Origin: Histomonas meleagridis 2922-C6/04-290x
Taxonomy: Eukaryota; Protista; Parabasalia
DNA length: 21,630 bases
Assembly: GCA_020184695.1 (NCBI GenBank)
Contig: JAANOX010000065.1
Span: 1-21,630, forward strand
Reading direction: 5' to 3'
The position numbers and the translations under genes are program-made. Position 1 is the first letter of the stretch; each line of letters begins with the position of its first letter. Below, one piece after another: positions 2-21,630 of this stretch. The notes beneath the pieces are model-generated. The model worked only from the letters and a program-made list of their open reading frames with translations. It was not told where the DNA came from and did no database searches.

Positions 2-712
2 AATAATCCTGACAATTTTACAATATTATTCCAGGGGTTTGGTAATATAGATAGGCGTGCATTTTATAATATAATATTGAATCATATTCATAATCATATA
101 GGTGGGGTTAGGATTGGACAACATTATTTTATAAATTATCTACGTGAAGGTTGGGTTTGGTCTCAAAAACCATTATTACCTAATGTATATCAAGACATGA
201 TAAATACATTAGGTAATGGTCAAGACATCACCCCCGATTATACTAATATTATAGAATTCGAGGGGTCAGATGAAGATAATGCATGGATACCTTATTGGAT
301 CCATTTAGAGGGGTTTGGTATAGAAAGAGCACAAAATGTAGCTCAAAATGGGGCACAATTCTTCCCTTATTTAGTTTCAGAAAATATTCCGTATGTTATC
401 AAACAATATTTACGAAGATTACAAATCTTCGATTCACTATTAAATAGTGAAAATAAACAAAGGGAAGAATTGAATGACTGTTGTTTCATATATGCTTTAA
501 AACAGTCAGGTATCCCAGAAAAAGTGCTCGATAAAATCCGTTGTAGGATTTTAGTCAAATATCATATTGCTTCTAAACTTGATTTAGTTTGTAAAGATAA
601 TTCAATTTATGCTCAAATTCACAAAGTTTATAAATCCATCGATGAAGATGGTAAAACTAGAATTAGACTTATTGTTTATCAAAAACAAGGTCAAACATTG
701 GTAGGTATATAA
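2..712 (+). pseudogene. N-terminal fragment of a Maverick/Polinton protein-primed DNA polymerase (terminal-protein region), truncated at ~700
   Basis: The frame is open from base 2, so it runs off the left edge and the TTG start at 77 is not the real start. It contains QFFPYL...LRRLQIF...NDCCFIYALKQSG, which I recognise as resembling the N-terminal part of trichomonad Maverick polymerases. The last codons (VGI*) come from the unit A leader that begins at 701. Confidence 0.55.
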
Positions 713-715
713 TGC

Positions 716-792
716 GGTCGGGAATGATCACGAGGACCCCAGGGGCCCCGCCCCCGGCGGGGCCCCTGGGGTCCTCGTGATCATTCCCGACC
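716..792. repeat. Perfect 37-bp inverted repeat with 3-nt loop (leader hairpin 1, unit A)
   Basis: 716-752 GGTCGGGAATGATCACGAGGACCCCAGGGGCCCCGCC is the exact reverse complement of 756-792; the loop is CCC. Confidence 0.97.
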
Positions 793-806
793 TTTAGTTT
801 TCACTG

Positions 807-883
807 GGGGGATTGAAGGGGTCTGAGGCCTCCGGAGGGGTCCGAAGGGCACCTCCGGAGGCCTCAGACCCCTTCAATCCCCC
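807..883. repeat. Perfect 32-bp inverted repeat with 13-nt loop (leader hairpin 2, unit A)
   Basis: 807-838 pairs exactly with 852-883; the loop 839-851 is GGTCCGAAGGGCA. Confidence 0.97.
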
Positions 884-934
884 GAGTGTGCTCGCTCCGC
901 TCGCAACAAAAATCAAAATGATTTTTGTGAGCCA

Positions 935-1014
935 TACAATTCGTCTGAAAATTTGAATGCGCATTCAATTTTGAGAGAACGCGAAACTTTTTGATAGGAA
1001 CGATAGCACTTTTA
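935..1014. repeat. 80-bp leader segment with an exact inverted copy at 8850-8929
   Basis: Base-by-base reverse-complement match. Contains the 16-bp palindrome TTGAATGCGCATTCAA (953-968). Confidence 0.95.
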
Positions 1015-1139
1015 GCACCACTTTTCGCATAAACCTATCAAAAACATCACATTACCAACACGAATTGTCCCCGATTATCTTTGGTCGGACATTTATCCTA
1101 TTTAATTTATCTTTGATCGGAAGTTAGTAGTCAAAAAGC

Positions 1140-1171
1140 GACGGTTATTGTTTGGTCTCATCACAACCTTT
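1140..1171 (+). promoter_or_regulatory. Possible Trichomonas-type M3/M5 core promoter of the 113-aa gene
   Basis: GACGGTTA (1140-1147) fits the Myb-bound M3 consensus and CCTTT (1167-1171) fits M5, 11 nt before the ATG. Unit B keeps the M3-like site but not CCTTT. These are short motifs, so a chance match is possible. Confidence 0.35.
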
Positions 1172-1181
1172 ATTTTTATAA

Positions 1182-1523
1182 ATGCTTAAACCTGTGACTA
1201 AAACGTATTTTTGTACTTCCCAAAAAGAAAACCGTTTTCCGCCTGAATTTGTGGATTCTCAAAATCCTAGATATATAGTAGTACAACAATGTAAGTGTAA
1301 ATTTAAGGATTATTTAGTATCTGATGTTTCAATGCATGCTGATTTCATTAAATGTGATCATTATGAAGATTATTTTTGTATTTATACGAATGAAAATAGA
1401 ACTAAATATAAGAAATATGAATATAAAAGTAGAAAACCAAATTTTAAAATATGGTTTAAAGAAATGAATGGTAAAGAAATTGATCCTGAATATTTTATGT
1501 TAGAATTATTATTAATTTATTAA
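1182..1523 (+). CDS. Conserved 113-aa hypothetical protein, possibly a small beta-rich virion vertex (penton-like) protein
   Basis: Intact ORF with a near-identical copy at 14312-14654. Lies directly upstream of the fibre gene. The function is inference only. Confidence 0.7.
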   Translation: MLKPVTKTYFCTSQKENRFPPEFVDSQNPRYIVVQQCKCKFKDYLVSDVSMHADFIKCDHYEDYFCIYTNENRTKYKKYEYKSRKPNFKIWFKEMNGKEIDPEYFMLELLLIY

Positions 1524-1530
1524 ATAAAAA

Positions 1531-1535
1531 TCATT
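1531..1535 (+). promoter_or_regulatory. Trichomonad-type initiator (Inr) TCATT upstream of the fibre ATG; representative of many
   Basis: TCA(T/C)T lies within ~20 nt upstream of ATGs at 1531, 3721, 7100/7105, 16694 and 21241 (+ strand) and at 6359-6363, 8396-8400, 18928-18932 and 20047-20051 (- strand). Confidence 0.65.
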
Positions 1536-1543
1536 TTTTATCA

Positions 1544-3706
1544 ATGTTTAGTATTGAGAATGCTACGAAAGGAATAAAAACTAATGTTATTGCTGCTCCT
1601 GAAATTATTGACCAAGATGACTTACAAAAAGTTTTAGAAAATTATTCTACAAATGATCAAATAACAGAAAAACTTAATACTATAACTTCGATTACAATCC
1701 CACAATTATATTATAATAAATCACAATCAGATGAAAAATATTCTACAAAAAGTCATACTCATAATACAATAAATAATGATTTAACAGTAAATGGAAATGT
1801 ACAAGTTACTTCATTAAATGGTTTTCAATTGTCAACAGCAGAAGGTGGTAAATGGGATACAAAATTATATGTTCCATCTATTATCACATTAAAAGAAGAT
1901 GGTGTTGTAGAAGTTGGACAATATATTGATCTGCATAATAATGCAGATTACGATAAAGATAATACATGGAGAATAACTGCTAATACTAATTCATTAGATT
2001 TTAAATCAAAAACTGGTTCATTATTAAGTTTCGGAAGTAATGGCAATATTCAATGTTCAACTATAAATAATGTAGATACATCTGAAATATCTTTAAATGA
2101 TCATAATCATGATGAGATTTATGCTAAAAAAAATCATGAACATGTAAACTATGCTTCATCAGATCATACTCATAGTTATACTGATTTAAATGATAAACCA
2201 CAGTCATTTCCACCTTCAGATCATACTCATAGTTATAACGATTTAAATGATAAACCTGAAACATTTCCACCTTCAGTTCATACTCATAGTTATAACGATT
2301 TAAATGATAAACCTGAAACATTTCCACCTTCAGTTCATACTCATAGTTATAACGATTTAAATGATAAACCTGAAACATTTCCGCCATCAGAGCATATACA
2401 TACTTTTGATTATGTTAATTTAAAAAAGATTACTATATCTAATGATGATAAATGGCAACTAGCAGCTATTTCACAAGAAGAAAATAAAATAATATTTAGT
2501 ATTTCTCAAGGAGAAGATGATACTCAGCCTCCTGAAATAAAAGATTATTTCATAAATAGAACTGTAGAAAATTTATGTATTAACAAACCAAATTATAGTG
2601 ATATCCGAAATAAACCATCATCATTCCCACCTGAAACTCATACACATACAGAATATGCACTACTAAATCATACACATAATTTTAGTAATTTAACATGTAC
2701 TTCAATTAATGGTTTTGCTATTAATTCTTCTCCTTCTTATAGTAATATAAAGATTGGTGTTCCTTCAGTAGCAGTTATTAAAAATGATGGAGTTTTAGAA
2801 GTAGGACAATATATTGATTTACATCATTCTGATGATTATGGAAAAGATTATACTTATAGAATTCAAGCAACCCCAGAATCATTGAATTTAAAATCAGTAG
2901 ATGATAATAGTACATTTAAATTTTATTCTTTTGGCCAACTTTTTTGTCCTGAAATTAAATGTCCTTTAATAATTATGGATTCACCCACTATGGATGGATC
3001 AATAGAATCAAATGAAGTTTATCGCTATACATGGGAATTTAAAATATCTAATGATCATAAATTATGTTTTCAAGCATTAACACAACGTGGGACCCCTTCA
3101 GATGATCAAGGAGAATCTTCTGTGGGTACACCTGAGGATAGCACCTCCTCTGAAGATTTGGTATGGAACGTTGTGAATACTACATCATATTATATTAATC
3201 ATGTATTTAATCACAATCCTGGCTCAGGTTCAATTCCAATTAATACAACCATTACTCATAATGCTCCTGTTTCAGAAGATTTAACACAATTTCAAATTGG
3301 TTCACCAGTATTTTTAACAGGTAATGTTTTTTCATTAAAACAAAATGGCGTATATACTTCAAATTCATTTACAACAGATTGTATACCATCAGTTAAAACA
3401 ACAGGTACATATAAAGAATATATAGGTATTTGTGTAGCTAAACATGAAAATGGTTATAAAGCTTCAATAGGTGATGTTATTAAAAGAGAAGTAGAAATTT
3501 TACAAGATACTATTGATTTTGCTACACATGGAGATTTTTATTTTAGAGTAAATAATACTGCAGATTATGAAATTGGTGATGTAGTATTATTTGATAATAA
3601 TAAATTATCAGATGATTTAGTAATAACGACTAAAATATTAAATTCAATAGTTGGTAAAGTAACATATAAAATAGATGAATATTTATTAAGTGTATTTAAA
3701 GAATAA
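1544..3706 (+). CDS. Tail-fibre/spike-like protein (720 aa) with HxH shaft repeats
   Basis: Intact ORF. Has a YYNKSQSDEKY motif, 19-aa HTHSYNDLNDKPETFPPS repeats and two internal NGF...VPS...DGV(V/L)EVGQYIDLH...D(N/Y)T(W/Y)RI modules. These motif types are typical of phage fibre proteins. Confidence 0.75.
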   Translation: MFSIENATKGIKTNVIAAPEIIDQDDLQKVLENYSTNDQITEKLNTITSITIPQLYYNKSQSDEKYSTKSHTHNTINNDLTVNGNVQVTSLNGFQLSTAEGGKWDTKLYVPSIITLKEDGVVEVGQYIDLHNNADYDKDNTWRITANTNSLDFKSKTGSLLSFGSNGNIQCSTINNVDTSEISLNDHNHDEIYAKKNHEHVNYASSDHTHSYTDLNDKPQSFPPSDHTHSYNDLNDKPETFPPSVHTHSYNDLNDKPETFPPSVHTHSYNDLNDKPETFPPSEHIHTFDYVNLKKITISNDDKWQLAAISQEENKIIFSISQGEDDTQPPEIKDYFINRTVENLCINKPNYSDIRNKPSSFPPETHTHTEYALLNHTHNFSNLTCTSINGFAINSSPSYSNIKIGVPSVAVIKNDGVLEVGQYIDLHHSDDYGKDYTYRIQATPESLNLKSVDDNSTFKFYSFGQLFCPEIKCPLIIMDSPTMDGSIESNEVYRYTWEFKISNDHKLCFQALTQRGTPSDDQGESSVGTPEDSTSSEDLVWNVVNTTSYYINHVFNHNPGSGSIPINTTITHNAPVSEDLTQFQIGSPVFLTGNVFSLKQNGVYTSNSFTTDCIPSVKTTGTYKEYIGICVAKHENGYKASIGDVIKREVEILQDTIDFATHGDFYFRVNNTADYEIGDVVLFDNNKLSDDLVITTKILNSIVGKVTYKIDEYLLSVFKE
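2165..2392 (+). repeat. Four tandem 57-bp coding repeats (19 aa each) in the fibre gene
   Basis: Units start at 2165, 2222, 2279 and 2336 (CATACTCATAGTTAT...). Confidence 0.97.
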
Positions 3707-3737
3707 AAAAATATTTTATTTCATTTTATATTTTTAT

Positions 3738-4751
3738 ATGGATCCAATTTATAAAAGAAGAAGAGAAATACAAAAATCATTCGAAACATTAGTTAAAAAT
3801 GAATTAAATAATGAAAATTCACAATAAAAAGGTAATTTGAGTCTTGAAAATTTCATTAATTTTTTGAATGAAAAATATAATAAAGAGTTTAATTTTACAC
3901 CTGAATTTAATACTGGTACAAAGCCATTAGTTGAAATATACAACAATTTAGTTAATTATTATATAGATGTGAGCTTAGAAAGAACAACAGATGATCAATT
4001 TGAAAATAAACAATTTGACGATTATAAGCAATTTGAATATAATTTTATCAAACTTTTTATCGAAACTGAAAAAATTACACCTATAAATGGAAAAATTAAA
4101 AGAAAAACAATTCCAGAGCATTATGAATATTATATTAGAACGATTATCAAAAAATTGAATGAGATGTTTGCACGCAAAGTTTTTGAAGCTGAAAAAAAGC
4201 CTATCAAATTTAATGAATATTGTGAAGAATTAAAAAAATATTTATATGGTATAGAAATAATTGATAATAAAATTGGGAACGTATTTACATTCGATTCTGC
4301 TTATAGTAATTATTTGTTACAATATTTTAGTAAATTTCCTTATGACAATATATATAAATATTATAATATATATGAAGATTCTAAGAATTCACCTAATATT
4401 AACACAGGTTTCAAATCTCGTTCGAAAAACAAATATTTATTTGATAACTATATACTTCCATATCATATTGATTATTCAAAATTAGATTCACAATTTAAAC
4501 CTAATATAAATAATTTAGATTATTGTCCTTATAAAAGTTATAAAAAATATCAATTAAAATATATTGGTAATGATGGTGATATCATGAAATTGTATCGGTC
4601 TATATATAAAGGTAATGAAATAGAATTCAATTTATTATTAGGTACAACCAAATTTAAATCAAATTATAATCAAATCATCACTAATGTCGTGAAATTCCCG
4701 AGAACATTAAAGTTCACATATGAAAAAGGAGACATTAACAACTATTATTAA
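3738..4751 (+). pseudogene. 5' half of the integrase gene fused to a DNA polymerase 3' fragment
   Basis: The ATG at 3738 follows an Inr and is in frame with the 3837 ORF across one TAA (3825-3827). YNIYED...NINTGFK...KNKYLF...KKYQLKYIG matches the unit B integrase frame upstream of its first catalytic Asp. From 4570 the sequence switches to polymerase. Confidence 0.75.
4570..4746 (+). repeat. 177-bp copy of the polymerase 3' end (paralogous to 9801-9977)
   Basis: DIMKLYRSIYKGNEIEFNLLLGTTKFK...KFPRTL aligns without gaps to 9801-9977 (offset 5231). Confidence 0.93.
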
Positions 4752-4836
4752 TAATAACTTTACAATTAGCACTAGAACTATTATGTTCAGTATTATTCTT
4801 CCCTACATGTGGTGAGAAATCACTTATTTTAATAAT
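4743..4836 (-). pseudogene. 5' remnant of the ~175-aa gene seen at 18398-18920
   Basis: Near-identical to 18827-18920; the start codon is mutated to ATT and the rest of the gene is deleted. Confidence 0.8.
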
Positions 4837-4870
4837 AAAAAATAATGATTTTAAAAAAAATTTTCTTTAT

Positions 4871-6350
4871 TTAGAAACCACGTTTAGTGTTAATATATTT
4901 ATATAATGATGATTTAACATCTGCAAATTTATTCTTATCTAGTAAAATCTTAGAAACTGCTTGCTTTGAAGCACTTGACCAATAATTTTCTCCTGTATCT
5001 TCTCTAATATATTTCTTAGCTGTTTTCTCATCTTTAATATTTTGACCTGCCAATATCTTATTCATTCTTGTTTTTATAATGTCATTATAAAATTTAGCAG
5101 ATACACTAAGTATTGGAAACATTCCTTTAATCATAGCTAACTTTACAGGAAGTTGTTCATCATAAGCATTATTCTTTTGATAATCTTTAAGATAATCATT
5201 ATAAATTGGCTTAATAACATATCTAGTAAACACTTGATTTGCTGTTCTCCTTTTTGGTTTGTGTGTTTTATAAACATCTCTAACACCTGTATCTTGATAA
5301 TACTTTAAATTAAATTTATCAACAGTATCCATAATTTGTCTACCTTCTGGGGTAGGTTCTACCCTAGGATCATCAAATGGCTTATTATCATCATATGAAA
5401 CTTTTTCTTATATATTTATCCATAAATTCATCGAAATCCTCTATATGTTGACCTATTTGCTCTCAAAAAGTTTTCTATTTTTGTGGACTACCATATATTT
5501 TTGTTGTAAAAATCTTATATATTGACTTTCATAGGGGTCATGTTGTTTAACCGTCCATCCATTTACAAATTTTGCTCTTTTATGTTGATCTGCAACTATA
5601 ACATCTGGAATACCATCCTTATTTATATCTTCTTCAATTGCAGTCCAATGATATCTTGGATCCTTTTTATATCTTTATTTTGTTTTTTTCAACTAATGCT
5701 CTTGCTCCTTCTATTGTTTGAAGCTCTCTAATTTTTAACATCTTTCTTTAAATCAAGAATAAGATGTGCTAATGTATCCATATTTTCATCCAATATAACA
5801 TTACTTCTCCAGTATATTTATATTTATTCTTATCTTCTATAAAATCATACATTTTACCACCAGGAGTTCTAATGTGATATTCAGGAGGTCTTGGAGGTGG
5901 TGGTAAACTTTTGGTATTTGTTCTTCTTTTTTGATATTTTCCGTCCACTTTTTCATAACCCAATGGTGGAATTTCGTTAGACAAAATTGGTTTAATGTCT
6001 TCGATAGTTACTGTTGGCTGCACTGATGAAAAATGATCTTCATATTCTGTTTCTTCCAAAGCATCATCCTTTAGAACTTCTGGATGAAATAATGCTAGTT
6101 CATCAAAAAATGGATGTCCAATATTTTGTAAATACATCAATATATTATCCCATAAAGTAATCTCATCTATATCGGCTGTTTTTAATGTTCGCCATATTAT
6201 TATTTGATTATTGAGTTCATTTATAATAATTTTATCGGGTTGTTGATTTCGCCATTGTCTTAATTTTTTTTTAGCAGCACTCATATCAATACCAAGAACA
6301 TTGAGATAAGTAGCTATTTTATTATCTAAGCCCAATTCTTTATTTGACAT
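4871..6350 (-). pseudogene. Conserved Maverick hypothetical protein (~490 aa), frameshifted; joins ORFs 5769-6350 and 4871-5332
   Basis: The intervening frames read DENMDTLAHLILDLKKDV...DPRYHW...EDINKDGIPDVIVADQHKRAKFVNGWTVK. These match the unit B fragments at 18957-20038. Confidence 0.75.
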
Positions 6351-6382
6351 TTAAAAGAAATGAATTTTAATTTTTCATTTTT

Positions 6383-7077
6383 TTATCCAATTTTTATTTT
6401 TTGATTATTCACGTCGACGATCATTTTTTGATGTCCTGTCAGTTTTTGATAAACTGAATAAATTCGATCTTTAGTATAAGGCAATGGTATTTGAGCTATC
6501 ATATAACTTAATTGTTGTTTAGAGAAATTAGGAAATATAAATATAGTACTTACATTAGCTTTAACTTCAGCAGGTAAAGATTTCCAAAATTGTACAGCGA
6601 AAAATACAGAACATTGAATATGAGCTAATTTAGTAAATAATTGATTAAAATAATTAGTAGGTTTTTTAAATAAAGGACTATTAGCACAATCTTCAAAAAA
6701 TATTATAGTATGTAAAGTTAAATTATTAAAATTATTAATATATAATTTTTGAAATAATTCAGATATTTGATTATCTACTATTTTATTTTCCCAATGATTA
6801 TTTTTAAAATGTAGGATCATTTTTCTAATCCATTTTTAGTAATATAGATTAATATATGATTTCTAGGGATATTATTACTATTTTTAATAATTTCTCTAAT
6901 TATACATTGAGTTTTCCCACTTCTTTGTCTACCTACTGCTATATTTAAAGAATTATAAAGCACATTCACTTCTGGATGAATTTCACTTATTAATTCTTCA
7001 TTTAATTTAGGTTTATTTTTATATAAACAATAATCAATCATATTATCTAAGGCATCAATATTAATATCGTTTTCCAT
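6383..7077 (-). pseudogene. A32/FtsK-like DNA packaging ATPase, copy 1 (frameshift plus internal deletion)
   Basis: Walker A GRQRSGKT, Walker B-like TIIFFED, and a KLAH...AVQ motif in the position of the A32 R/H...Q motifs. It is 108 nt shorter than the 11182-11983 copy in the middle. Confidence 0.85.
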
Positions 7078-7116
7078 AAAATAAAATAATTTTATAAAAT
7101 CATTTCATTATTATTA

Positions 7117-7509
7117 ATGGAAGCTCTTTATACATGTTTTGCACAAGAATTTAAAGATTGTGATTTTAGTGCTATAAATATTAAACCTTCGTTTTCTATT
7201 GTAAAAAATAAAAATGTAATAACATTAACTGTAACTGTGTATAATAAATATCATAATTTATTAAGAAAACAAATTTATAAATTTATAGATGAAAAATATC
7301 ATCCTACTATTAAAAATCTATTACAAAATATAACACCTGAACAATTAGATAAAGCTTATCAAATATCTATAATGGAATTATTAAATCAAATATTTAATGA
7401 TGATTTTAATAAATATAATGCTTATGTAAATAAATTAAATGTTTTACAAAATTATGCTAACTCAATAATGCCTCAAAATCAAAATGAACAATCTCAAAAT
7501 GTTTTATAA
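7117..7509 (+). CDS. Conserved 130-aa hypothetical protein, divergent from the ATPase
   Basis: Intact ORF with a double TCATT upstream; near-identical copies at 10737-11138 and 20583-20971. Confidence 0.75.
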   Translation: MEALYTCFAQEFKDCDFSAINIKPSFSIVKNKNVITLTVTVYNKYHNLLRKQIYKFIDEKYHPTIKNLLQNITPEQLDKAYQISIMELLNQIFNDDFNKYNAYVNKLNVLQNYANSIMPQNQNEQSQNVL

Positions 7510-8165
7510 ATAAAAACTTAATGTCATTAATATTTTTTAACGTTCGAAAGGTGACACATTTGAATGAATAAATGTATAATGATTTTTATGTAATTTTTTA
7601 TGGACAGGGGATCAGTGTTAAAAAAATGAATTGATTTTTATCGTATTTTCCCACTTTTGAATTAACGATAGATTCAATTTTTACAGTTATGTACTAACTT
7701 AAGATATAAATTAATTCATCGAGATCATGGAAACGATCAGTAAACTATTTAAACAAAAAATATTTGATAGTACAGTCTTTATTCAGGTTAAAAAGTCATT
7801 GTGATCAAAACTCTCAGAAAACAACATTATCGCTATTCAATTTTATGATCGTATATTTTGACAAAAACTATGATCGTAACTTTGAATCTTACAGTCATTT
7901 TGGCATTTTTTTTCTTTAACGTTCATCTATCGTACTATTCAAAAATTTTATCACAAATTATTGAAATAAATTGAATGGTTAACATCACTTCACTATTTAA
8001 ATGTTGTCTAGATTACGAGTGGGGTGTGAAATTGAATAGTTTACTAAGGAGTATACCCTGATTGAATAGTTTATTGATCGGTATTTTTCGGATGAAAATG
8101 AAGATGCAAAGATCAAACTCATTTTTTAGACACAAAACAATGAAAAAAAATGATGTTGGAGTCGT

Positions 8166-8390
8166 TTACTCAATGTATTGAAGGATTCCTAATACTTCAT
8201 CAAATTTGTCCTTCATGATTAGGTCAATTAAGTAATCTTTGATCAGATCACGGTAATTGGTAAGGCAATTTGAGGGTTCCGCCGTGATCGACCCTTCCTC
8301 CCACAGCAACACGAAGTAGAGGACTTCGTCGTCGCCTTCCTTACGGAAGTAGTGGTCAAGGATGCATTGGACCGGGTACTCTTGTTCCAT
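8166..8390 (-). CDS. Standalone chromodomain-like protein (74 aa)
   Basis: MEQEYPVQCILDH...YFVLLW...TAEPSNCL follows the chromodomain pattern (EY.V..ILD...L+.W...T.EP..NL). The ATG at 8390 has a TCATT Inr just upstream. GC is much higher than in neighbouring genes. Confidence 0.65.
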   Translation of the reverse strand: MEQEYPVQCILDHYFRKEGDDEVLYFVLLWEEGSITAEPSNCLTNYRDLIKDYLIDLIMKDKFDEVLGILQYIE

Positions 8391-8528
8391 CGTCAAATGA
8401 ATTTGGGGTACCCTAATATAAACTATTCAAATATAATGATTTATTTAAAACTATTATGATGTTTTTTGAATCATTTCAAGTTCATTTGGTATATGTTAAT
8501 ATGATTTTTTAAAATAATTACTTTTTAT

Positions 8529-8849
8529 TTAATAACCATCAGGAATACCATTAGCATAATATTTCAATCCATTATGTAAATTTAATGTGAAATAAGTATC
8601 ACGACAAATGAATAATTGAGGGGGAGGTGGATGATTTCCAGCATCATCAACATTATAATAAGTATCGTTAGCTTGAGTATATATAGGTTGTTCCTTAATT
8701 TGTATCGGGATGTTTTGACCGTTAGAGTCTAAGCCGTCGAATACGTAACCACCACGCGAACGTTCACATTGTATATTAAGCATAAAAGAAGTAGCATCAC
8801 TTAATGTATTATTATATCTTGTACCATTTGAAGCATTCCTATCCATAGT
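8529..8849 (-). pseudogene. 3' fragment of a conserved Maverick gene, probably the major capsid protein
   Basis: YNNTLSD...QCERSRGGYVFDGLDS...NDTYY...HPPPPQLFICRDTYF. A homologous end sits at 21555-21630. The first residues of the listed ORF (8850-8873) come from the inverted 80-bp insert. The capsid assignment is from recollection and is unverified. Confidence 0.45.
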
Positions 8850-8929
8850 TAAAAGTGCTATCGTTCCTATCAAAAAGTTTCGCGTTCTCTCAAAATTGAA
8901 TGCGCATTCAAATTTTCAGACGAATTGTA
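8850..8929 (-). repeat. Inverted copy of 935-1014 at the junction between the capsid-like and polymerase fragments
   Basis: Exact 80-bp reverse complement. Confidence 0.95.
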
Positions 8930-9985
8930 GAAATTAAAATTACAAAAGTTAGCAAACATTATCCCTTCCCTCTTATAGTTCAATAGATAAATGGTTTAAA
9001 CCTTAATGACGACAATAACATAAGTGAAGAAAATCCCGTCACTATGGTCGTCGACAATATAGCCTTGGAAGATCTTATAGTATATCAAAATATACGATTC
9101 CAAATAGTACGAGGCTATTATTGGGATGAGGGTTATGATCCCACCATTCAAAATGTAATCAAAGAAATATTCCAAAAACGGGTGGAATATAAACGACAAA
9201 ATAACCCTCTCCAACTAATATATAAATTAATTATGAATAGTTGTTACGGCAAAACAATTGAAAAGCCGATCAACAAAGAATGGAAGTATTTAAAGAAAGG
9301 CGATAGAGCTGATAACTACGCCTCTAAAAATCACTTTCGAATAATAGAAAGAATTCTGATTAATGATCCAAATATAGAATCATTTAATATAAAACGACCT
9401 ATAGATAAGCATTTTAACTTATCGTTGTTAGGCGTTCAAATATTAAGCATGTCAAAGAGAATCATGAACGAAGTGATGTGCTTAGCATATGACATTGGCT
9501 GTAAAATTCCTTATCAAGATACAAACTCAATGCAAATAGTAAAATCGGATTTACCTAAATTAGAAACAGCCTTCGAGGCTAAATATAATAGAAAACTAAT
9601 AGGTAATAATTTAGGGCAATTCCATTCCGTTTTTACTAGTGATGATGGTAGAAGCGATGTCAACTGCGCAGTTGAAAGCTACTTCATCATGAAGAAAACC
9701 TATATCGATAAACTATTCTATAATGATTATGGTATAGGTTATATGTCTAGGGCAAAAGGTATACCTACCGATACTAGATATATACATGCAAATCTTGATT
9801 ATGATGATGATATCATGAAATTGTATCGTTCTTTATATGAAGGTAATGAAATAGAATTTAATTTATTATTAGGTACAACCAAATTTAAATTAAATCCTAA
9901 TCAAACTATCACTAATGTCGAAAAGTTCCCGAGAACGTTATAGACCACATATGGAAAAGGAGACGTTAACAACTATTTTAAATGA
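8927..9985 (+). pseudogene. polB: C-terminal fragment of a protein-primed family B DNA polymerase
   Basis: Motif B KLIMNSCYGK (9224-9253); motif C reads YQDTNS (9512-9529) instead of YxDTDS; GQFHS and KKTY follow. The frame extends upstream to VEIKITKVSKHYPFPL across a TAG (8984), and downstream past a TAG (9941) to a TGA at 9985. Motif A and the exonuclease domain are absent. Confidence 0.92.
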
Positions 9986-11138: not shown

Positions 11139-11181
11139 TAATAATAATGAAATGATTTTTATAAAAATTATTTTTATTTTT

Positions 11182-12102: not shown

Positions 12103-12241
12103 GCGCTATGTGAGCTTCGTGCTACGCACTCGCTCCCACCCGCGCTACATAAACTAAAGGATGAACGGCTAAAATCGATTGAATTCTCATAAATCGGTTG
12201 GTTTTGATTGAAAGTAATAAAATATATTTAAATTCATGATG

Positions 12242-12499
12242 ACATTTATATTTAAAATGTGTGAGGCATGAATCCGGCTGAGCTGTTGTTAATCCTATGT
12301 GGATTTTAGTGTTTTGTTGTTAATCCTATGTAGATTTTAGTGTTTGGAGCTTAAAGTTGTTATTAACTGAGGTTTTGAATGTAAAAAGTACCTTTTAATT
12401 TTCAAAGATGTTTTTTTAACCCTTTTTCTAACCCTTTTTTTAACCCTTTACGAAACGGAGAAAATGAGCATTTTTTGAATGATTTAACGCAAAAGTTGA
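12242..12499. repeat. Direct repeat R1 (non-coding)
   Basis: Matches 13206-13449, and its 3' part matches 12521-12710. Contains a duplicated TTGTTAATCCTATGT(G/A)GATTTT and several T(n)AACCC units. Confidence 0.93.
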
Positions 12500-12520
12500 C
12501 GGTTGATATATCAGTAAGAA

Positions 12521-12753
12521 TTTGTTGTTAATCCTATGTAGATTTTAGTGTTTGGAGCTTAAAGTTGTTATTAACTGAGATTTTGAATGTAAAAAGTACC
12601 TTTTAATTTTCAAAGATGTTTTTTTAACCCTTTTTTTAACCCTTTTTTTAACCCTTTACGAAACGGAGAAAATGAGCATTTTTTGAATGATTTAACGCAA
12701 AAGTTGAATGACAAAAAAATAAATTATTTTTAAACGAAACCGTAAAGTTTTTT
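12521..12753. repeat. Direct repeat R2 (5'-truncated), overlapping the HNH stop codon
   Basis: Matches 12313-12499 and continues to match R3 through TTTAAACGAAACCGTAAAGTTTTTT. Confidence 0.93.
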
Positions 12754-13203
12754 AAATTTTGAATAATAAAGTGCAAAACTTGAATTATTAGTATCTCTGC
12801 AATAAACATGAGCAGAACCGCGCTTATCATAACAGATTGTTAATTTTCTGAATTTAATACCGTTCCAAAAGTAAAACGCATCTGTTTTATCATCATAATA
12901 ATAATCTTCTAATTGATGATTGCCATACTTATTAACTTCAATTGAATCCTCGTTGATTTCGTCAAAGAATTCAAAGTCTTTTCCTTTACCTGAACTATTA
13001 TTTTTTAGATTTTCTGACTGATAAACCCGGAGATTTGAAACGTGATTGTTGGAACGGTTGTGATCTATGTGATCGATAAATGGCTTGTTTTCTGGATTTG
13101 GAATAAATTGTAACGCAATGATACGATGTTTAAGATATAATTTTCTGTTTAATTTACATGCAATATAACCGGTAGTTTTAATTGAAAATTCTTTAATGAC
13201 ACC
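12730..13203 (-). pseudogene. HNH endonuclease (HNH_3/phage homing-endonuclease type), 157-aa open frame lacking its start; not in the ORF track
   Basis: Manual translation: GVIKEFSIKTTGYIACKLNRKLYLKHRIIALQFIPNPENKPFIDHIDHNRSNNHVSNLRVYQSENLKNNSSGKG...YYSKFKKLYGFV*. It is preceded by ATG-TGA at 13209-13204. Confidence 0.88.
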
Positions 13204-13205
13204 TC

Positions 13206-13495
13206 ACATTTATATTTAAAATGTGTGAGGCATGAATCCGGCTGAGTTGTTGTTAATACTATGTGGATTTTAGTGTTTTGTTGTTAATCCTATGTGGATT
13301 TTGTTTGAACTTAAAGTTGTTATTAACTAAGATTTTGAACTCAAAAAGTACCTTTTAATTTTCAAAGATGTTTTTCTAACCCTTTTTTTGAACCCTCAAC
13401 GAAACGGAGAAAATGAGCATTTTTTGAAGGATTTAACGCAAAAGTTGAATGACAAAAAAATAAATTATTTTTAAACGAAACCGTAAAGTTTTTTT
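13206..13495. repeat. Direct repeat R3
   Basis: Matches R1 from its first base (ACATTTATATTTAAAATGTGTGAGG) and R2 to its last base. Confidence 0.93.
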
Positions 13496-13845
13496 GATTG
13501 TAGAAAATAAACTTTTTTAACGGTTTTCGAAATAAAATTTTAACGGTTTTCTGTTTGATTATTGGGATAGATTAACGGACGTCGAAAATGACGGTTGATG
13601 AATTTTAACGGTCGAGTGATTGTTGTAAAATGTGTTGTGAAATATATTCGAATAGATAAAGAAAAATATCTACGATGAATGGCAAATGTAAAAATTTTTG
13701 AATTGACATTGAATTTAGTGGCAAAACGATTAATAATTGAATGAGTACTGAAAAATTGGCGGGCAAAATGATTTGAATGAGTTCTGAAAAAGTTAATTTT
13801 GCGCCTGATGCACTTAAAACGCGTGTTTCAGTAGGTATATAATGC

Positions 13846-13922
13846 GGTCGGGAATGATCACGAGGTCCCTAGAGGCCCCGCCCTCGGCGGGGGCCCTAGG
13901 GACCTCGTGATCATTCCCGACC
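13846..13922. repeat. Leader hairpin 1, unit B (37-bp arms, 2 mismatches, loop CTC)
   Basis: 13846-13882 pairs with 13886-13922. Confidence 0.95.
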
Positions 13923-13933
13923 TTACTTTCACT

Positions 13934-14008
13934 GGGATTTCCGGGGTCTTCGACCCCCGGAGGTGCCCTTCGGACCCCTCCGGAGGTCTCAGACCCCTTC
14001 AATCCCCC
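13934..14008. repeat. Leader hairpin 2, unit B (imperfect arms, inverted loop)
   Basis: The loop 13964-13976 is TGCCCTTCGGACC. The left arm is diverged and holds a local GGGGTC-TTC-GACCCC stem. Confidence 0.9.
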
Positions 14009-14311
14009 GAGTGTGCTCGCTCCGCTCGCAACAAAAATCAAAATGATTTTTGTGAGCCATACAATTCGATAGAAAATTTGAATGAGCATTCAATTTTGAG
14101 AGAACGCGAAACTTTTTCATAGGGACGATAGCACTTTTTATGCCACTTTTCGCATAAACCTATCAAAAACCTCGTATAACCAGCGCAAAATGTCCCCGGT
14201 TATGTTTGGCCGGACATTTATCCTATTCAATTTATCTTTGGTCAGAGGTTTGTAGTCAAAAAGCGACGGTTATATTGTTTGGTCGCATGGCAAACTTTAT
14301 TTTTTTCATAA

Positions 14312-14654
14312 ATGCTTAAACCTGTGACTAAAACGTATTTTTTTTTTTTTCAAAAAAGAAAACCGTTTTCCGCCTGAATTTGTGGATTCTCAAAATCCTA
14401 GATATATTGTAGTACAGCAATGTAAGTGTAAATTTAAGGATTATTTAGTATCTGATGTTTCAATGCATGCTGATTTTATTGAACGTGACCATTATGAAGA
14501 TTATTTTTGTATTTATACAAATGAAAACAGGACTAAATATAAGAAATATGAATATAAAAGTAGAAAACCAAATTTTAAAATATGGTTTAAAGAAATGAAT
14601 GGTAAAGAAATTGATCCAGAATATTTTATGTTAGAATTATTATTAATTTATTAA
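14312..14654 (+). pseudogene. Unit B copy of the 113-aa protein, frameshifted in a T run
   Basis: The ATG at 14312 matches 1182. A long T homopolymer (~14338-14351) replaces TTTTGTACTTCCC. The rest is near-identical. Confidence 0.85.
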
Positions 14655-14676
14655 ATAAAAAAATCATTTTTTATCA

Positions 14677-16677
14677 ATGTTTAGTATTGAGAATGCTACG
14701 AAAGGTATAAAAACTAATGTTGTTGCTGCTCCTGAAATTATTGATAAAGATGACTTACAAGAACTTTTAGAAAATTATCCTACAAATGATCAAATAACAG
14801 AAAAAAACTTAATACTATAACTTCGATTACATTACCTCAATTATATTATAATAAATCGCAATCAGATGAAAAATATTCAACAAAAAGTCATACTCATAAT
14901 ACAATAAATAATGATTTAACAGTAAATGCGAATGTACAAGTTAATTCATTAAATGGTTTTCAATTAACAACTGCAGAAGGTGGTAAATGGGATACAAAAT
15001 TATATGTGCCATCTATTATTACATTAAAAAGAAGATGGTGTTGTGGAAGTTGGACAATATATTGATATGCATAATAAGGCATATTGTTATAAAGATAATA
15101 CATGGAGAATAACTGCTAATACTAATTCATTAGATTTTTAAATCAAAAAAACTGGTTCATTATTAAGTTTTTGGAAAGTAATGGAAATATTCAATGTGCA
15201 ACTATTAATAATTTAGATACAACTAAGATATCTTTAAATGATCATAATCATGATGAGATTTATGCTAAAAAAGATCATGAACATACAAACTATGCTTCAT
15301 CAGAACATACTCATAGTTATAACGATTTAAATGATAAACCTGAAACATTTCCACCTACAGTTCATACTCATAGTTATAATGACTTAAATGATAAACCTGA
15401 AACATTCCCACCTTCAGAACATACGCATAGTTATAATGATTTATCTGATAAACCTGAATCATTTCCACCCTCAGTACATACACATACGGAGTATGCTCTG
15501 AAAGATCATAATCATGATACAAAATATGCTGCTACAAATCATACACATAGTTATAATGATTTAACAGATATTCCTACAGTATCAAATCCAGAAAATATCA
15601 CATGTTCAACAATTAATGGTTTTTGCTTTAGATTCATCTCCTGCAGATTCAAATTTAAATATTAGTGTTCCTTCAATTGCAGTTATTAAAAACGATGGTG
15701 TTTTAGAAACAGGTCCTTATATAGATATGCATACTAGTGATGGATATGAAAATGATTATAGTTTCAGAATACAATGTACAGGGAATGTTATGGAATTTAA
15801 ACCAACACTAAAAAGGTTGCAATGGTTTTTTTATTACACAGCAGCTTTTGATGCATTAGGTTGTACTAAAATTAAATTGCTCTCAAAATTATGTACTCTG
15901 TAAAAACTAATGGTATTGATAATACAGGAAATATAAAAATCCGGTACTGGTCAATTCACTAGTTTAGAATCTACTAAATTAACTTTATTTCACAGTATAA
16001 TTGAAGAATCAGGTAATACATATCAATTATTATGGAGAATTTATGGATGTACACCTACTGAAGATAAAAAATATGGAAGATTATATTTTGAATCTGTAAC
16101 ACAAAAAGAAACAAGATAATGATACATTTTCTGATATATATAGTGCAATATATTATATTGCAACTACATTTAATACATTTGAAGGAACTGGAGGTTTAGC
16201 ACAAATAAATACAACTATTACTCATAATGCACCTGTTGAAGAAGACTTAACACAATTTCAAATTGGTTCACCAGTATTTTTAACAGGTAATGTTTATGCT
16301 TTAACCAATGAAGGTAAATATGTTACAAATACTTCATCAACTGATTGTATTCCATCAGTTAAAACATCAGGTACTTATAAAGAATATTTAGGGATATGTG
16401 TAGCTAAACATGGAACTGGATATAAAGCTTCAATAGGTGATGTTATTAAAAGAGAAATCGAAATTTTACAAGATACTATTGATTTTTGCTACACATGGAG
16501 ATTTTTTTATTTTTAGAGTAAATAATACCGCAGATTATGAAATTGGTGATGTAGTATTATTTGATGGTAATAAATTATCAGATGATTTAGTAATAACTAC
16601 TACAAATATTAAATTCAATAGTTGGTAAAGTAACAGGTAAAATAGATGAACATTTATTGAGTATATTTAAAGAATAA
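14677..16677 (+). pseudogene. Unit B fibre gene, broken by multiple small indels
   Basis: Same N-terminus (MFSIENATKGIK) and C-terminus (...LLSIFKE*) as 1544-3706. The ORFs at 15171, 15616 and 16437 are pieces of it. Confidence 0.88.
15306..15476 (+). repeat. Three tandem 57-bp coding repeats in the unit B fibre
   Basis: Units start at 15306, 15363 and 15420. Confidence 0.95.
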
Positions 16678-16712: not shown

Positions 16713-18401
16713 ATGGAAGAACGTGAACCAAAAAAAGAACCTAGCATCAATAAATCTCCATTAGATGAAGTACGACGATTAGCTCTACTTAATGATAAAG
16801 GACCTGAAAAACAGCCTTCTTTTTACGAATTTTTAATGCAAAATTTAAAATTGATTTTTCGTAATCTGAAATTTGATTTATCATTAAATAATTTTTTAAA
16901 ACTAATGGATGAAGCAACAAAATCTGTTAGAAATGGGGTTCCAATATCACCCACATATAGAATTCAATTTAAGTCTATGAAAGAATATTATCAAATCATT
17001 ATTAATAGTTTTTATTATAAATTTTTCAAAAACCCAAATTAATACAAATTTAGATTTTGATGAATTTAAGAAATTAATTAATGATATTATTAAAAAATAT
17101 AATATAGATTATATTGATGGACATATAGGTTTATATCCATTAAATGAATATTATAACTATTATAAATCTATTATTCTAAAATATACACCTTTAAGAAAAT
17201 TACTTCATAAAATATTTGCAAAAGAAGTAGAAAATGATTTTAAAAATGGGAAACCTAAAACTATACAAGAATTTATTAATTTCTTAATTACAAAATTAAC
17301 TAACTCAAATATAACAGAAAATATTCCATTAGATTATGCTTATTCATTATATCTTTTATATTATTTTTATCATTTTAGATATGTAACTCCAAATGATTCT
17401 TACAATATTTATGAAGATAAACAAAATATTAATACAGGTTTTAAAACTTTAAATAAAAATAAATATTTATTTAAAAAATTAAATATACCTTATAGTATTG
17501 ATTATACAAATATAGGTAAAATAAAACCGAATATAAATTATTTTCCTTTCAAATTAAATAAAAAATATCAATTAAAATATATTGGAGGTAATGGAGAATA
17601 TCAAATGGATTTATTTTTTTCACATAGTGATGAATTTAATTATGATTATTGTTATTTATTAGCTGTAGAAGTACAAACTAGATTTTTATTTGGTACTTTC
17701 ACTAATATTAAAATAAACGATAAACATTATAAAAAATCAATCGAAAGTGTAGCTAAAGCTTTATTTGAACTTTATGGTACAGGTTTATTTAATCCTAAAA
17801 TTATTCATTGTGATTCAGAAACAACATTTTTTTATCAAAACCTTTACAATATATTTCAAATCATTTAATTGGTACTAAAATAATTTATGTTAAAAAAATA
17901 ATAATTAAAAATAAATCTTATCCTATACATTCATCTTTAGCTATAATTAATAGAATTTGTAGAACTATTAGAGATATGGCTGATAATATGGGTTTAGAAT
18001 ATATTCAACCTCATGATATGAATAAAATTATACATAATTATAATCATACTTATCATAAAACATTATCTAAATTAAATCATAAAAAAATATCACCATATGA
18101 AGCTAAAATAAAACAAAAATCTTTTGGTTTATCTCTACATAAATTAAATTATAATATTATGAAACAAAAAGGATTTTATTTACCTCCTGGTACAACAGTA
18201 ACAGTTTATAACACAGATCAATTAAAAAAGAGATCAAAAATATTACCAGATATTTATATAGTAGATAATTTTGAAAAAGGTAAATTTAATATTCATAATG
18301 ATAAAGGAATAAAAATGTCAGTACCAAGATATTTATTAAATCCAGTTCCAAATGCAATTATTATACCTTCAAAAGAAAAAGATCCAATGATGTTTTATTA
18401 A
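16713..18401 (+). pseudogene. Retroviral-like (rve) integrase of Maverick type, frameshifted
   Basis: YQMDLFF (first Asp 17608), YCYLLAVEVQTRFLF, IIHCDSE (second Asp 17812), SSLAIINRICRTIRDM, IIHNYNHTYH. A long frame lacking an ATG links ~17030 to 17605. Frameshifts at ~17030, ~17830 and ~17895. Confidence 0.88.
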
Positions 18402-18920
18402 TAAATAAATACTTTTTCTAAGGAAATATTAAATTCATCCATTAATGTGTTATATTCTTTATTATATTGAGAATTAAAATCATACCCATTAATCTTAATT
18501 GAATTAACTTTTTTAATTGGATTTACATGTTTTTAAACATCCAGGTTCAGGATCTTCATAACTTAATCTAACTTGATTAAAATCAATTTCTAAAATTAAA
18601 CTTATAGCTTGTACTAAATCATTAGCATTAATTATAATTTTACCACTATTATCAATTAAATTTGCTATTAATTTCATATTATTTGTTTTTAATATCGCAC
18701 TAAATGTTAAAGCTATATGTTTATATAAAGCACTAGCATTATCAGTATTAATTTCAGTTTCTCTTGTAATTATTTTTGATGTTTCTTCATTAACTTCAGG
18801 ATAATGTGCTGGTGTTTCACTATTGTTATTATTAATAATAACTTTACAATTAGCACTAGAACTATTATGTTCAGTATTATTCTTCCCTACATGGGGTGAG
18901 AAATCACTTATTTTAATCAT
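18398..18920 (-). pseudogene. Conserved hypothetical protein (~175 aa), frameshift plus internal stop
   Basis: ORF 18513-18920 continues in a shifted frame as NPIKKVNSIKINGYDFNSQ*YKEYNTLMDEFNISLEKVF to a stop near the integrase stop. Inr upstream. The end coordinate is approximate. Confidence 0.65.
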
Positions 18921-18956
18921 AAAAAATAATGATTTTAAAAATTTTTGTTTATTAAC

Positions 18957-20038
18957 TTACTCATCTGCTAATCCATTAGGTGTACCAATTATACTTACTA
19001 CATATTTTTTAACTGCATCTAACATTATTTGTTCATGGTTAGGATCTTCTAACAAATCAGTAACAACTTTTTTACAAGCAGTTGAATAATAACTTTCACC
19101 TGTCTCCAATTTATATTTTTTACCTGCTTCAATATTTGGAATATTACGTTTTTTTAATAGTTCTTCTACTTTAGGAATTACCATTAATTTTGTATAATGC
19201 AGCAGATAATTGAAGTATTGGACAATAACCCCTAATTCTTCCTTGATATTCACTATTACCTTCATATTTATCAACGAAAGTTTTATATGCATCTTTAACA
19301 AGTAAACTTGTAAATACTGCATTTGCTGACCTTCTTCTTGGAGTACTATGTAATTTATAAATATTCATAACACCAGTATCTCTATAATAGTTATCATTAG
19401 CCCTTTTCACTTTTTCCCTAAATTCATCATATTCAGGATTATATTGGACAGTTGGATCATCGAATGGTTTATCATATTTTACTGTTCTTACTTCACTATC
19501 TAGCCATTCATTGAAAGATTTAATCTTCTTTCCATCTGCTCTATGTTGTCTTCTTTTTTTTTAGGATTACCATAATTATTTTTTAAATATTCCATATATG
19601 CTACTTGATAAGGATCTTGTTTTTTGACTGTCCATCCATTAACGAATTTAGCTCTTTTATGTTGATCTCTTATAATAATATCTGGAATTCCATCAGCATT
19701 AACATATTTTTTTTTACTGACCAATGATATCTTGGATCTTTACCATCATTATGTTTGTTAACATATTCCAAAGCACCATTATATGTTTGTGCATCTCTAA
19801 CTTTTCTAACATCTTTCTTTAAATCAAGAATTAGATGTGCTAAAGCTTTCATATTCTCATCAATTAATGTACTATCAGCACCATGATATTTATAATGACT
19901 TAAATCATCATCAAAAATATATTTAGCATCACCCTCTGTAACATATCTTTTAGGTTCTTTTTTAATAATTGGTGGATATATACGTGTACCATCTTTATTT
20001 CGTGGTCTACGTGTTCCATATATCACATCTTGTTGCAT
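18957..20038 (-). pseudogene. Unit B homologue of 4871-6350 (~360 aa), split into four listed ORFs
   Basis: Shared blocks DENM.ALAHLILDLKKDV, DPRYHW, DGIPD..I.DQHKRAKFVNGWTVK, YY.DTGV..+YK.H...RR.AN.VFT and TGE.Y+S.A.K..V. Confidence 0.8.
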
Positions 20039-20071
20039 TAAAAAAAAATGATTTTAAAAAAAAAATTTTTT

Positions 20072-20529
20072 TTATTCAATTTTTATATTTTGATTATTAA
20101 CATCAATAATCATTTTTTTGATGACCAGTTAATTTTTGATAAACTGAATAAATTTGATCTTTAGTATAAGGTAATGGTATTTGTTCAATCATATATCTTA
20201 ATTGTTGTTTAGAGAAATTAGGAAATATAAATATAGTACTTACATTAGCTTTAACTTCAGCAGGTAAAGATTTCCAAAATTGTATTTTTATTAATATAAA
20301 TTAATAAATGAGTTCTAGGACTAATATTACTAATTTTAATAATTTCTCTAATTATACATTGAGTTTTCCCACTTCTTTGTCTACCTACTGCTATATTTAA
20401 AGAATTATAAGGTACATTCACTTCTGGATGAATTTCACTTATTAATTCTTCATTTAATTTAGGTTTATTTTTATATAAACAATAATCAATCATATTATCT
20501 AATGCATCAATATTAATATCGTTTTCCAT
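20072..20529 (-). pseudogene. Packaging ATPase, copy 3, with a ~345-bp internal deletion that removes Walker B
   Basis: Joins ...IYINKN directly to ACAATTTTGGAAATC (QFWKSL region); Walker A is retained. Confidence 0.87.
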
Positions 20530-20582
20530 AAAATAAAAAATAATTTTCATAAAAAAAGCATTCTGTCACTTCATTATTTTTA

Positions 20583-20971
20583 ATGGAAGCTCTTTATACA
20601 TGCTTTTGCACAAGAATTTAAAGATTGTGATTTTTAGTACAATTAATATCAAACCTTCGTTTTATATAAAAAAAAAAAAAAATGTAATAACAGTAACTGT
20701 AACTGTGTATAATAAATATCATAATTTATTAAGAAAACAAATTTATAAATTTATAGATGAAAAATATCATCCTACTATAAAGAATCCTTTACAAAATATA
20801 ACGCCTGAACAATTGGATCAAGCTTATCAAATATCTAAAATGGAATTGTTAAATCAAATATTTAATAATGATTTAAATAAATATAATGCTTACTTAGGTA
20901 AATTAAATGTATTGCAACAATACGCTAATACATTAATGCCACAAAATAATCAACCTCAAAATGATCTATAA
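20583..20971 (+). pseudogene. Third copy of the 130-aa protein, with an early frameshift
   Basis: ATG GAA GCT CTT at 20583 matches MEALY. The frame shifts within the first ~60 nt and then matches 7117-7509. Confidence 0.8.
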
Positions 20972-21252
20972 ATAAAAATCTAATTATTTAGTATATGTAA
21001 ACTATTTAAACAAATATTATTGTGTTTACCGTAAATAAACTAAATAAAAAGTTTACTGAATTATAAACTTTTGAAAAATATTTTATCACAATACAATTAT
21101 GTTGTGATAAAATGACGAAAAATGACTTGTCAAATGACACAAAGTCCTAACCTATTTTCTCAATATTTGAAAGGGTGTTCGTTTCAAAATAATAAAAATA
21201 TATCAAAAAGTTTAATTGAGAGACAATATTTTGCATGACTTCACTTTCAGGA

Positions 21253-21492
21253 ATGGAACAAGAGTACGCAGTCGATCATATCTCTGATCCCGAGTTCAAA
21301 GATGGGGCGGTCTCTTTCCTGGTGCACTGGAGCACAGGAGAAGAAACTCGTGAGCCTCTTAAAAACCTAGTCCCTGGCTGCCTTGAAAGTTTACTTAATT
21401 GGAGTCAATGCTACAGGCGCATCTTGAAGCCGGAATACCTAGAGCAGTTCGATAGAGCACTTGACTACGCGATCACTCATCCGTATCAATAA
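21253..21492 (+). CDS. Standalone chromodomain-like protein (79 aa)
   Basis: MEQEYAVDHISD...FLVHW...TREPLKNL. The ATG at 21253 follows a TCACT Inr (21241). About 50% GC by hand count. Confidence 0.65.
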   Translation: MEQEYAVDHISDPEFKDGAVSFLVHWSTGEETREPLKNLVPGCLESLLNWSQCYRRILKPEYLEQFDRALDYAITHPYQ

Positions 21493-21554
21493 ACAATCAA
21501 TTCTAATTTTTAATCTTAAAAAAATCTGAGATCTAATTTTAAAATAATTTTTAT

Positions 21555-21630
21555 TTAATAACCCTCTGGTGTACCATTAGTATGGTATTTCAGACCATTT
21601 TTCGTAAGTCTAATGTGAAATAAGTATCGC
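21555..21630 (-). pseudogene. 3' end of the capsid-like gene, unit B
   Basis: DTYFTLDL...NGLKYHTNGTPEGY* is homologous to DTYFTLNLHNGLKYYANGIPDGY* at 8529; there is a frameshift in an A5 run. Confidence 0.6.

Follow-up and report, generated by a model that had tools for sequence, protein, structure and literature searches.

In the 21,630-nucleotide stretch of Histomonas meleagridis 2922-C6/04-290x DNA analysed here (contig JAANOX010000065.1, hereafter the window), we found what is probably a cluster of nested, rearranged copies of integrated Maverick-Polinton virus relics. The window belongs to the metamonad Maverick-Polintons, as all five core genes that lent themselves to testing were recovered, namely those for pPolB, the integrase, the ATPase and, as predicted folds, the double jelly-roll (DJR) capsid and the single jelly-roll (SJR) penton. 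The gene set, the gene order and the breaks could be read directly from the DNA. Self-comparison of the window revealed two copies, copy A (700-8929) and copy B (13830 to the end), which both open at the same leader and align from its start (701-2345 versus 13831-15486) with 91% identity. Common to both is a leader followed in the forward direction by a 113-aa gene, a fibre gene and an integrase region, which converge on a small gene, a gene of 360-490 aa and the ATPase gene in the reverse direction; divergent from the ATPase gene lie a 130-aa gene and a slot, facing the capsid 3' end. An initial annotation of this DNA, made from the sequence alone, had proposed two diverged copies in such an order, and in outline this held both in the self-comparison and in a comparison of loci. 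Its assignment to the Maverick/Polinton lineage with virion genes was likewise supported, by the predicted DJR capsid and SJR penton, an A32-type ATPase and a fibre with a variable middle. Of the genes it had placed in both copies, the integrase is rve-type in copy B but lacks the catalytic core in copy A, and the capsid-like gene obtained a fold through a relative but is a 3' fragment in copy A, and in copy B the window includes only its 3' end. Between the copies lie a third, inverted fragment with the ATPase and 130-aa genes, pieces of pPolB and an HNH frame; the third fragment and the HNH frame were absent from the list in that annotation.

The capsid and penton genes are located as follows.
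8529-8849, minus strand: capsid 3' fragment of copy A, 71-72% identical to the 539-aa protein P0036 and comprising the final ~107 codons of a gene for ~539 aa.
21537-21630, minus strand: capsid 3' end of copy B, 81% identical to 8507-8600 and cut by the window edge.
1182-1523, plus strand: 113-aa likely penton of copy A, an open frame with a predicted single jelly-roll.
14312-16676, plus strand: penton and fibre of copy B, with frameshifts that fall mostly in homopolymers.

Histomonas meleagridis protein records match the capsid fragment at 94-97% identity, and the full-length relative P0036 is 71% identical to it over 105 aa. Full-length relatives measure 538-540 aa, P0036 occurs on 438 contigs, and 609 representatives match at E<=0.001. 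By sequence, the capsid had no match in Pfam or the PDB, no relative in IMG/VR and no match among GenBank phages. Modelled from a 105-row alignment, P0036 reached a pLDDT of 93.5 and 229 Foldseek matches at E<=0.001, and in the VIA comparison a Z of 20.6 to PBCV-1 (rmsd 4.0, 343 residues) and of 16.6 to mavirus. Tested on this relative, the capsid gene is predicted to encode a DJR major capsid protein; the absence of a capsid fold from every open reading frame (ORF), which would have spoken against the initial annotation, was thus not borne out. For the 113-aa protein, the AF2 model (pLDDT 85.9) had viral capsid proteins in all of its top seven VIA rows (PBCV-1, EhV-201, mavirus penton, Sputnik, aviadenovirus and SGIV chains; Z 6.1-7.4). 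Since, besides these fold matches, a homolog is present in 39 of the 47 capsid loci that a metagenome scan yielded from 89 pattern matches (the L numbers below), and adjoins the capsid gene in relatives, this protein is likely the penton, a predicted SJR minor capsid protein. The penton frame is without ATG in L001 (7176-7544), L002, L024 and L042, whereas sister loci have one, which reflects either a non-AUG start or a shared lesion. Small basic amphipathic proteins starting with MAWG adjoin the capsid gene in relatives (L036:2811-3556, L001:5062-5289, L027:8056-8322) and were not detected in the window; they are candidate internal virion proteins.

The gene set and part of the gene order recur in independent metagenome contigs. 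On L001 (16.8 kb, labelled human gut), the capsid, penton, fibre and integrase genes follow each other on the same contig as an ATPase gene, a 131-aa gene and pPolB (PF03175, 7e-40), all as open frames. The L001 type has the capsid and penton genes in tandem and the L027 type has them divergent; in the window they occupy opposite ends. In a quick version of the capsid tree (53 capsids), four Histomonas proteins grouped with P0008 and six L001-type proteins (SH-aLRT 100). The host of the gut contigs may be Dientamoeba, a guess from kinship. A DDE_1 transposon with 43-nt inverted repeats (L001:618-2331) abuts the GGTAGG start of L001. Beside the capsid gene of L012 lies a bacterial-type IS transposase (391-1827; DUF772 and DDE_Tnp_1_6) with hairpins, which makes this either a chimeric contig or an insertion.

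The genes for replication, integration and packaging, together with the conserved genes between them, are the following.
2-699, plus strand: pPolB N-terminal piece from another copy, interrupted by leader A; 43% identical to L001 pPolB (E 1e-17).
8930-9983, plus strand: pPolB C-terminal fragment; PF03175 E 6e-9, 56% identical to L001 pPolB.
3738-4560, plus strand: integrase N-terminal region of copy A, without catalytic core; 69% identical to 17324-17603.
16713-18401, plus strand: rve-type integrase of copy B in three frames; PF00665 E 0.061, 36-38% identical to the L001 integrase (E 8e-27).
4871-6350, minus strand: '490-aa' conserved gene in several frames, homologous over 5009-5781 to a 420-550-aa ORF of relatives.
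6383-7077, minus strand: A32-type packaging ATPase of copy A; Pox_A32 E 0.0095 (below cut-off), 62% identical to the L001 ATPase.
7117-7509, plus strand: 130-aa conserved hypothetical gene of copy A, 39% identical to the 131-aa ORF of L001.
10737-11983, both strands: third inverted fragment (aligned span 10754-11987), with the 130-aa gene (minus) and a frameshifted ATPase gene (plus).
18513-20971, both strands: gene block of copy B, with the small minus-strand gene, the '360-aa' gene, the ATPase gene (internal deletion) and the 130-aa gene.

The integrase homolog of L027 matched PF00665 at E 0.001, a score that, like that of copy B, is below the cut-off; the first two acidic motifs aligned. 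Pox_A32 was matched at E 0.008-0.0095 by window frames and at 0.0011 by L027, also below the cut-off, with Walker A and B motifs aligned; compared with the third fragment, the ATPase gene of copy A lacks ~100 bp internally. The small minus-strand gene of copy B weakly matched the 158-aa gene of L027 (E 0.039). At the edge of the first pPolB piece, short-read contigs run past 699 with other sequence, as loose ends. The animal-type Maverick/Polinton carries an adenovirus-like cysteine protease, for which no Pfam match was obtained in the window or locus frames scanned, several conserved ORFs being without assignment.

The fibre gene of copy A is open.
1544-3706, plus strand: 720-aa fibre-like protein, an open frame with 19-aa His-Thr-His repeats (TRF), a variable middle and a conserved 155-aa C-terminal domain.

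Its PHROG matches to tail and tail-fibre proteins (best E 2.4e-8) are confined to the repeat region, and its three best matches are Histomonas meleagridis proteins named tail proteins. Compared with three Histomonas homologs, identity was 84-89% in residues 566-720 and 24-26% in residues 451-565, and the motif opening the C-terminal domain was kept in 115 of the 120 listed fibre homologs (439-1234 aa); at the level of sequence, a variable fibre is thereby supported as an architecture, beyond which the host-range variation and virion formation suggested in the initial annotation would go. A trimer prediction of residues 500-720, run without alignment, gave a score of 0.00 and no verdict. For a possible role of the C-terminal domain as an intramolecular chaperone, considered because of a resemblance, neither a family nor a PDB match was obtained. 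A bacterial phage origin was rejected, given the eukaryote-labelled matches, the PRD1-lineage capsid and pPolB. Two fibre homologs, P0129 and P0224, are labelled 'Bacilli bacterium' in metagenome-assembled genomes and possibly derive from mis-binned protist-virus contigs.

Both copies open with a leader that carries hairpins.
700-1181, plus strand: leader A, shared with B and starting with GGTAGG; likely left terminal inverted repeat (TIR).
716-792, no strand: hairpin 1 of copy A, a perfect 37-bp stem.
802-888, no strand: hairpin 2 of copy A, its 13-nt centre inverted in copy B.
13830-14311, plus strand: leader B, starting with AGTAGG; hairpins at 13846-13922 and about 13932-14016.
8850-8929, minus strand: inverted leader piece, equal to 935-1014 (80 bp, 100% identity).

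We place an element boundary at ~700, since short-read contigs, assembled from two runs of one study (X1 and X2), carry unlike flanks there (before 698 and 700 in 5 and 9 X1 contigs; agreement 0.62 and 0.49). Of a long TIR pair, the left boundary is thus supported, and on the right copy A has only the 80-bp inverted piece, a possible remnant of the right terminal repeat, which contigs extend on both sides with leader sequence. The hairpins fold far better than shuffled sequence (z = -21.9 for A and -11.7 for B; 0 of 200 shuffles as good). Between A and B, 33 pairs of hairpin 1 are unchanged, two are compensated and two broken, and its paired positions 740 and 768 were both found changed, in 47 and 49 X1 contigs and in 41 and 34 X2 contigs. 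Of the 13-nt centre of hairpin 2 (839-851), B has only the exact reverse complement, which lies at 13964, and one contig each of X1 and X2 has a strand-switch joint inside this hairpin (827/876 and 847/882). The flip/flop hairpins that had been proposed were thereby borne out for one loop in two copies. The proposed hairpin-ended element was not supported in that form: the leader hairpins are strong, but they stand in tandem with stems starting 16 nt inside the boundary, so that the integrated form has no hairpin as its physical end. The hairpin of L001 is a different one and follows its GGTAGG start after 8 nt (z -7.5). A strict hairpin scan of the 47 loci found none, and folding 24 of them turned up that of L001 and a few others, most loci stopping short of the element end; IMG/VR contained no sequence identical to a 20-nt hairpin motif.

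Taken together, we consider nested, rearranged relics of a Maverick-Polinton virus with pPolB replication and a virion kit the probable explanation of the window. In its intact form, the protein-primed polymerase would copy a linear genome and the rve integrase would insert it, the DNA likely being packaged into an icosahedral capsid with the predicted penton and with a fibre that likely sits on this penton, its C-terminal domain kept and its middle swapped. The leader, which we infer to be a TIR, would provide in its first ~16 nt both the integrase end and the polymerase start. The strand displaced in the course of copying could fold the subterminal hairpins, and template switching between hairpin arms would keep the arms complementary while inverting the loop; given that pPolB is encoded by the family, we favour this switching over closed hairpin ends. 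Small accessory genes (chromodomain-like, HNH, kinase) would turn over.

Several observations weigh against this explanation. None of the copies seen was complete, with a TIR at either end and a target-site duplication (5-6 bp in Mavericks/Polintons). The initial annotation counted pPolB among the defining genes, and its pieces are indeed in the window, but beside copies A and B and inside neither. The Pfam scores of the integrase and the ATPase stay under curated cut-offs, and at the third catalytic position the B integrase has Asn instead of the Asp of L001 and L027. The penton Z values stay below 8 (middling) with 0 BFVD matches at E<=0.001, and the fibre call derives from the repeat region, its C-terminal domain having no family or PDB match. 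Each of the 13 members examined in the Histomonas capsid cluster is partial (189-381 aa), one of nine comparisons between copies gave a dN/dS of 1.42 (60 codons at a deletion edge), and the template switching is read from two copies.

The breaks bear on what the copies are today.
4561-4871, no strand: rearrangement in copy A, with a pPolB 3' tail (4561-4752) fused to the small minus-strand gene at its start (4743-4871).

At the joint at ~4561, the N-terminal part of the integrase runs into a 192-bp pPolB tail (88% identical to 9792-9983), followed by 130 bp from the beginning of the '175 aa' gene, and at the far side of copy A the capsid fragment is joined to the inverted 80-bp leader piece and then to the pPolB C-terminal fragment. 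Copy B is frameshifted and cut by the window edge, its right end lying outside. Deletions took the integrase core and most of the capsid gene of A as well as parts of two ATPase genes, and short-read contigs of X1 and X2 show further deletion joints on the element; with the partial capsid records, this would fit a family that in Histomonas is now only a decaying intragenomic transposon, its virion genes being remnants and no particles being formed. To this we give somewhat less than an even chance. In-frame stops between copies amounted to 0 in 1086 aligned codons, and 14 of the 20 frameshifting indels in nine pairwise copy comparisons fell in homopolymers of at least 4, which make up 11.5% of positions, so part of the decay, and many of the breaks, may be assembly or sequencing error. 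Moreover, the capsid gene continued beyond 8853 in 12 (X1) and 7 (X2) contigs, and relatives keep full 538-540-aa capsids. Copies A and B differ at dS 0.06-0.30, and in 8 of the 9 comparisons dN/dS was 0.16-0.65, indicating from sequence divergence that purifying selection acted on the genes of the copies. Copies A and B are either relics or assembly-damaged, and for these two a decaying transposon is compatible with the viral origin that we favour. In two runs of one study that we guess to be RNA, one contig each covers the capsid 3' end (8522-8853, 40 differences) and ends 11-14 nt beyond, which is a hint only and no evidence of expression.

The homopolymer-biased frameshifts of B could also mean that the arrangement itself, with its nested pieces, inverted leader and pPolB joints, arose for the most part when a collapsed repeat family was mis-assembled, the more so as over 1200 short contigs per run map to the repeat and no listed piece covers the whole stretch. 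We consider this unlikely: A and B share their order and yet differ at the above dS under purifying selection, the same genes in part of the same order recur in the independent metagenome contigs, and the compensated hairpin changes recur in short-read contigs.

The exact loop inversion, the compensated pairs and the strand-switch joints in hairpin 2 might instead point to a free form with a hairpin-primed genome, parvovirus- or poxvirus-like, in which flip and flop arise from hairpin-end resolution, possibly by enzymes of a helper giant virus (egovirus). From the sources available in part, a hairpin-priming model was proposed for the palindromes that in Halocafeteria virophages and polinton-like viruses lie, as here, in TIRs beside the element end (bioRxiv 10.64898/2026.07.28.741278), and egoviruses are inferred to infect Parabasalia and to be KilA donors to parabasalid polintons. 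Those palindromes, however, mostly accompany non-pPolB elements, whereas the present family has a full pPolB; host and capsid group differ as well, and the text available describes no loop inversion. The hairpins are also set back from the boundary, by 16 nt in the window and 8 nt in L001, and stand in tandem, no Rep or resolvase family match was obtained in 30 window frames and 40 further frames, and assemblers can create strand-switch joints at palindromes. Loop inversion is common at long palindromes. Such a free form thus appears quite improbable, and it is very doubtful that the family comprises fibre-bearing virophage-like satellites of egoviruses, open-framed and widespread in human-gut protists, with poxvirus-like resolution of invertible terminal hairpins, which if true would link protein-primed and hairpin-primed replication in one genome. 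Their compensated pairs and invertible loops make the subterminal hairpins a feature through which Polinton replication can be put to the test.

The initial annotation had further spoken of a virus family, and a reading of this family as new is not supported, as the capsid lineage with its presence in Histomonas, and in another paper phage-tail genes and cargo, are in print. The capsid lineage and its occurrence in Histomonas are already catalogued by Bellas et al. 2023 (PMC10120064), who in the text available to us report Histomonas genomes with 61 and 72 capsid matches in two clusters and confirm the metamonad DJR capsid by modelling against PBCV-1. By motif search and by eye, several N-terminal motifs of P0036 recur in gene_93267, a Tritrichomonas foetus capsid on their list that was itself confirmed against PBCV-1, and KAH0792383, the one Histomonas capsid printed in their Table S3, appears by eye to be of a different family; the words 'hairpin' and 'fiber' have 0 occurrences in their main text, which in the part covered contains no element anatomy or penton. 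A protein database searched for three exact T. foetus capsid motifs together returned no carrier.

According to the parts of Sullivan et al. 2025 available (PMC12289875), the Trichomonas vaginalis elements TvMav1-3 share with the window pPolB, an integrase, an A32 ATPase, a phage tail-repeat gene, the tail-fibre-like S1, HNH and sporadic 'cargo', as well as nesting; T. vaginalis Mavericks often lack TIRs, and no adenovirus-like protease is listed. By eye and unfolded, the published T. vaginalis Maverick ends have a subterminal imperfect hairpin, and class-3 TvMav ends a GGTAG start with a TTC-loop stem. The gene order of TvMavs differs from that of the window, and 'hairpin' has 0 occurrences in the eight supplements of that paper. 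The KilA-N, DUF3839 and DUF4106-4108 genes, which in TvMavs stand in a class order, had no Pfam match in the window and scanned locus frames, all copies there being incomplete. Adintoviruses and MELD viruses (Starrett 2021, PMC8502044, as far as covered) have phage-tail-fibre-like genes like that of the window, but carry a chromodomain on the integrase, whereas the chromodomain-like gene here stands alone, no maturation protease was detected and the host is a parabasalid.

In the portion seen of a 2026 preprint, metamonad and trichomonad Polintons are left ungrouped because their morphogenetic module is divergent; the predicted penton, the modular fibre and the open-framed gut relatives could help to place them and serve as markers for gut parabasalids. 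As the main text of the Histomonas genome paper has 0 occurrences of 'polinton' or 'viral' (and gives repeats of ~2% versus 20% duplication), viral genes of this kind are likely included among the host genes in the Histomonas annotation. In the literature covered, we found neither the anatomy of this element nor the penton assignment, the loop inversion or open-framed close relatives in human-gut metagenomes described; Pritham 2007, Kapitonov and Jurka 2006, Repbase, the Bellas figshare set and bioRxiv supplements, outside this coverage, may each contain any of them.

The slot and the region between the copies contain accessory genes.
8166-8390, minus strand: chromodomain-like gene in the slot of copy A (profile search).
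21235-21492, plus strand: chromodomain-like gene in the slot of copy B (profile search); 44% identical to L036 229-435.
12730-13203, minus strand: HNH endonuclease frame without ATG; PF13392 E 8.8e-9, 45% identical to the HNH beside the capsid gene in L027.

A swappable chromodomain cargo had been suggested, and the slot is indeed variable, but both copies hold a diverged chromodomain-like gene, 42% identical and in opposite orientation. A three-homolog profile matched chromodomain proteins in 20 of 23 PDB matches (best E 6e-4, the only one at E<0.001); aligned to HP1, the third aromatic cage residue is presumably missing. In both X1 and X2, a single contig passes over 7992-8522; further contigs depart at 7479 or join at 8524 with other sequence. 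Accessory genes of relatives include, besides the chromodomain-like homolog (L036) and HNH (L027), a DUF5906 protein (L007) and, in the L020 group, a deoxynucleotide monophosphate kinase directly after the penton (L020:4301-4924, PF21448, 2e-12), whose cluster counts 5 frames among the 17 loci clustered.

Two features stand apart from these genes. A 99-aa ORF (10304-10603) had no Pfam or PHROG match and no homolog among the 47 loci. Around the HNH frame and upstream of leader B, an AT-rich repeat of ~250 bp occurs in three copies (12215-13511; one 208-bp tandem), possibly the end of another mobile family.

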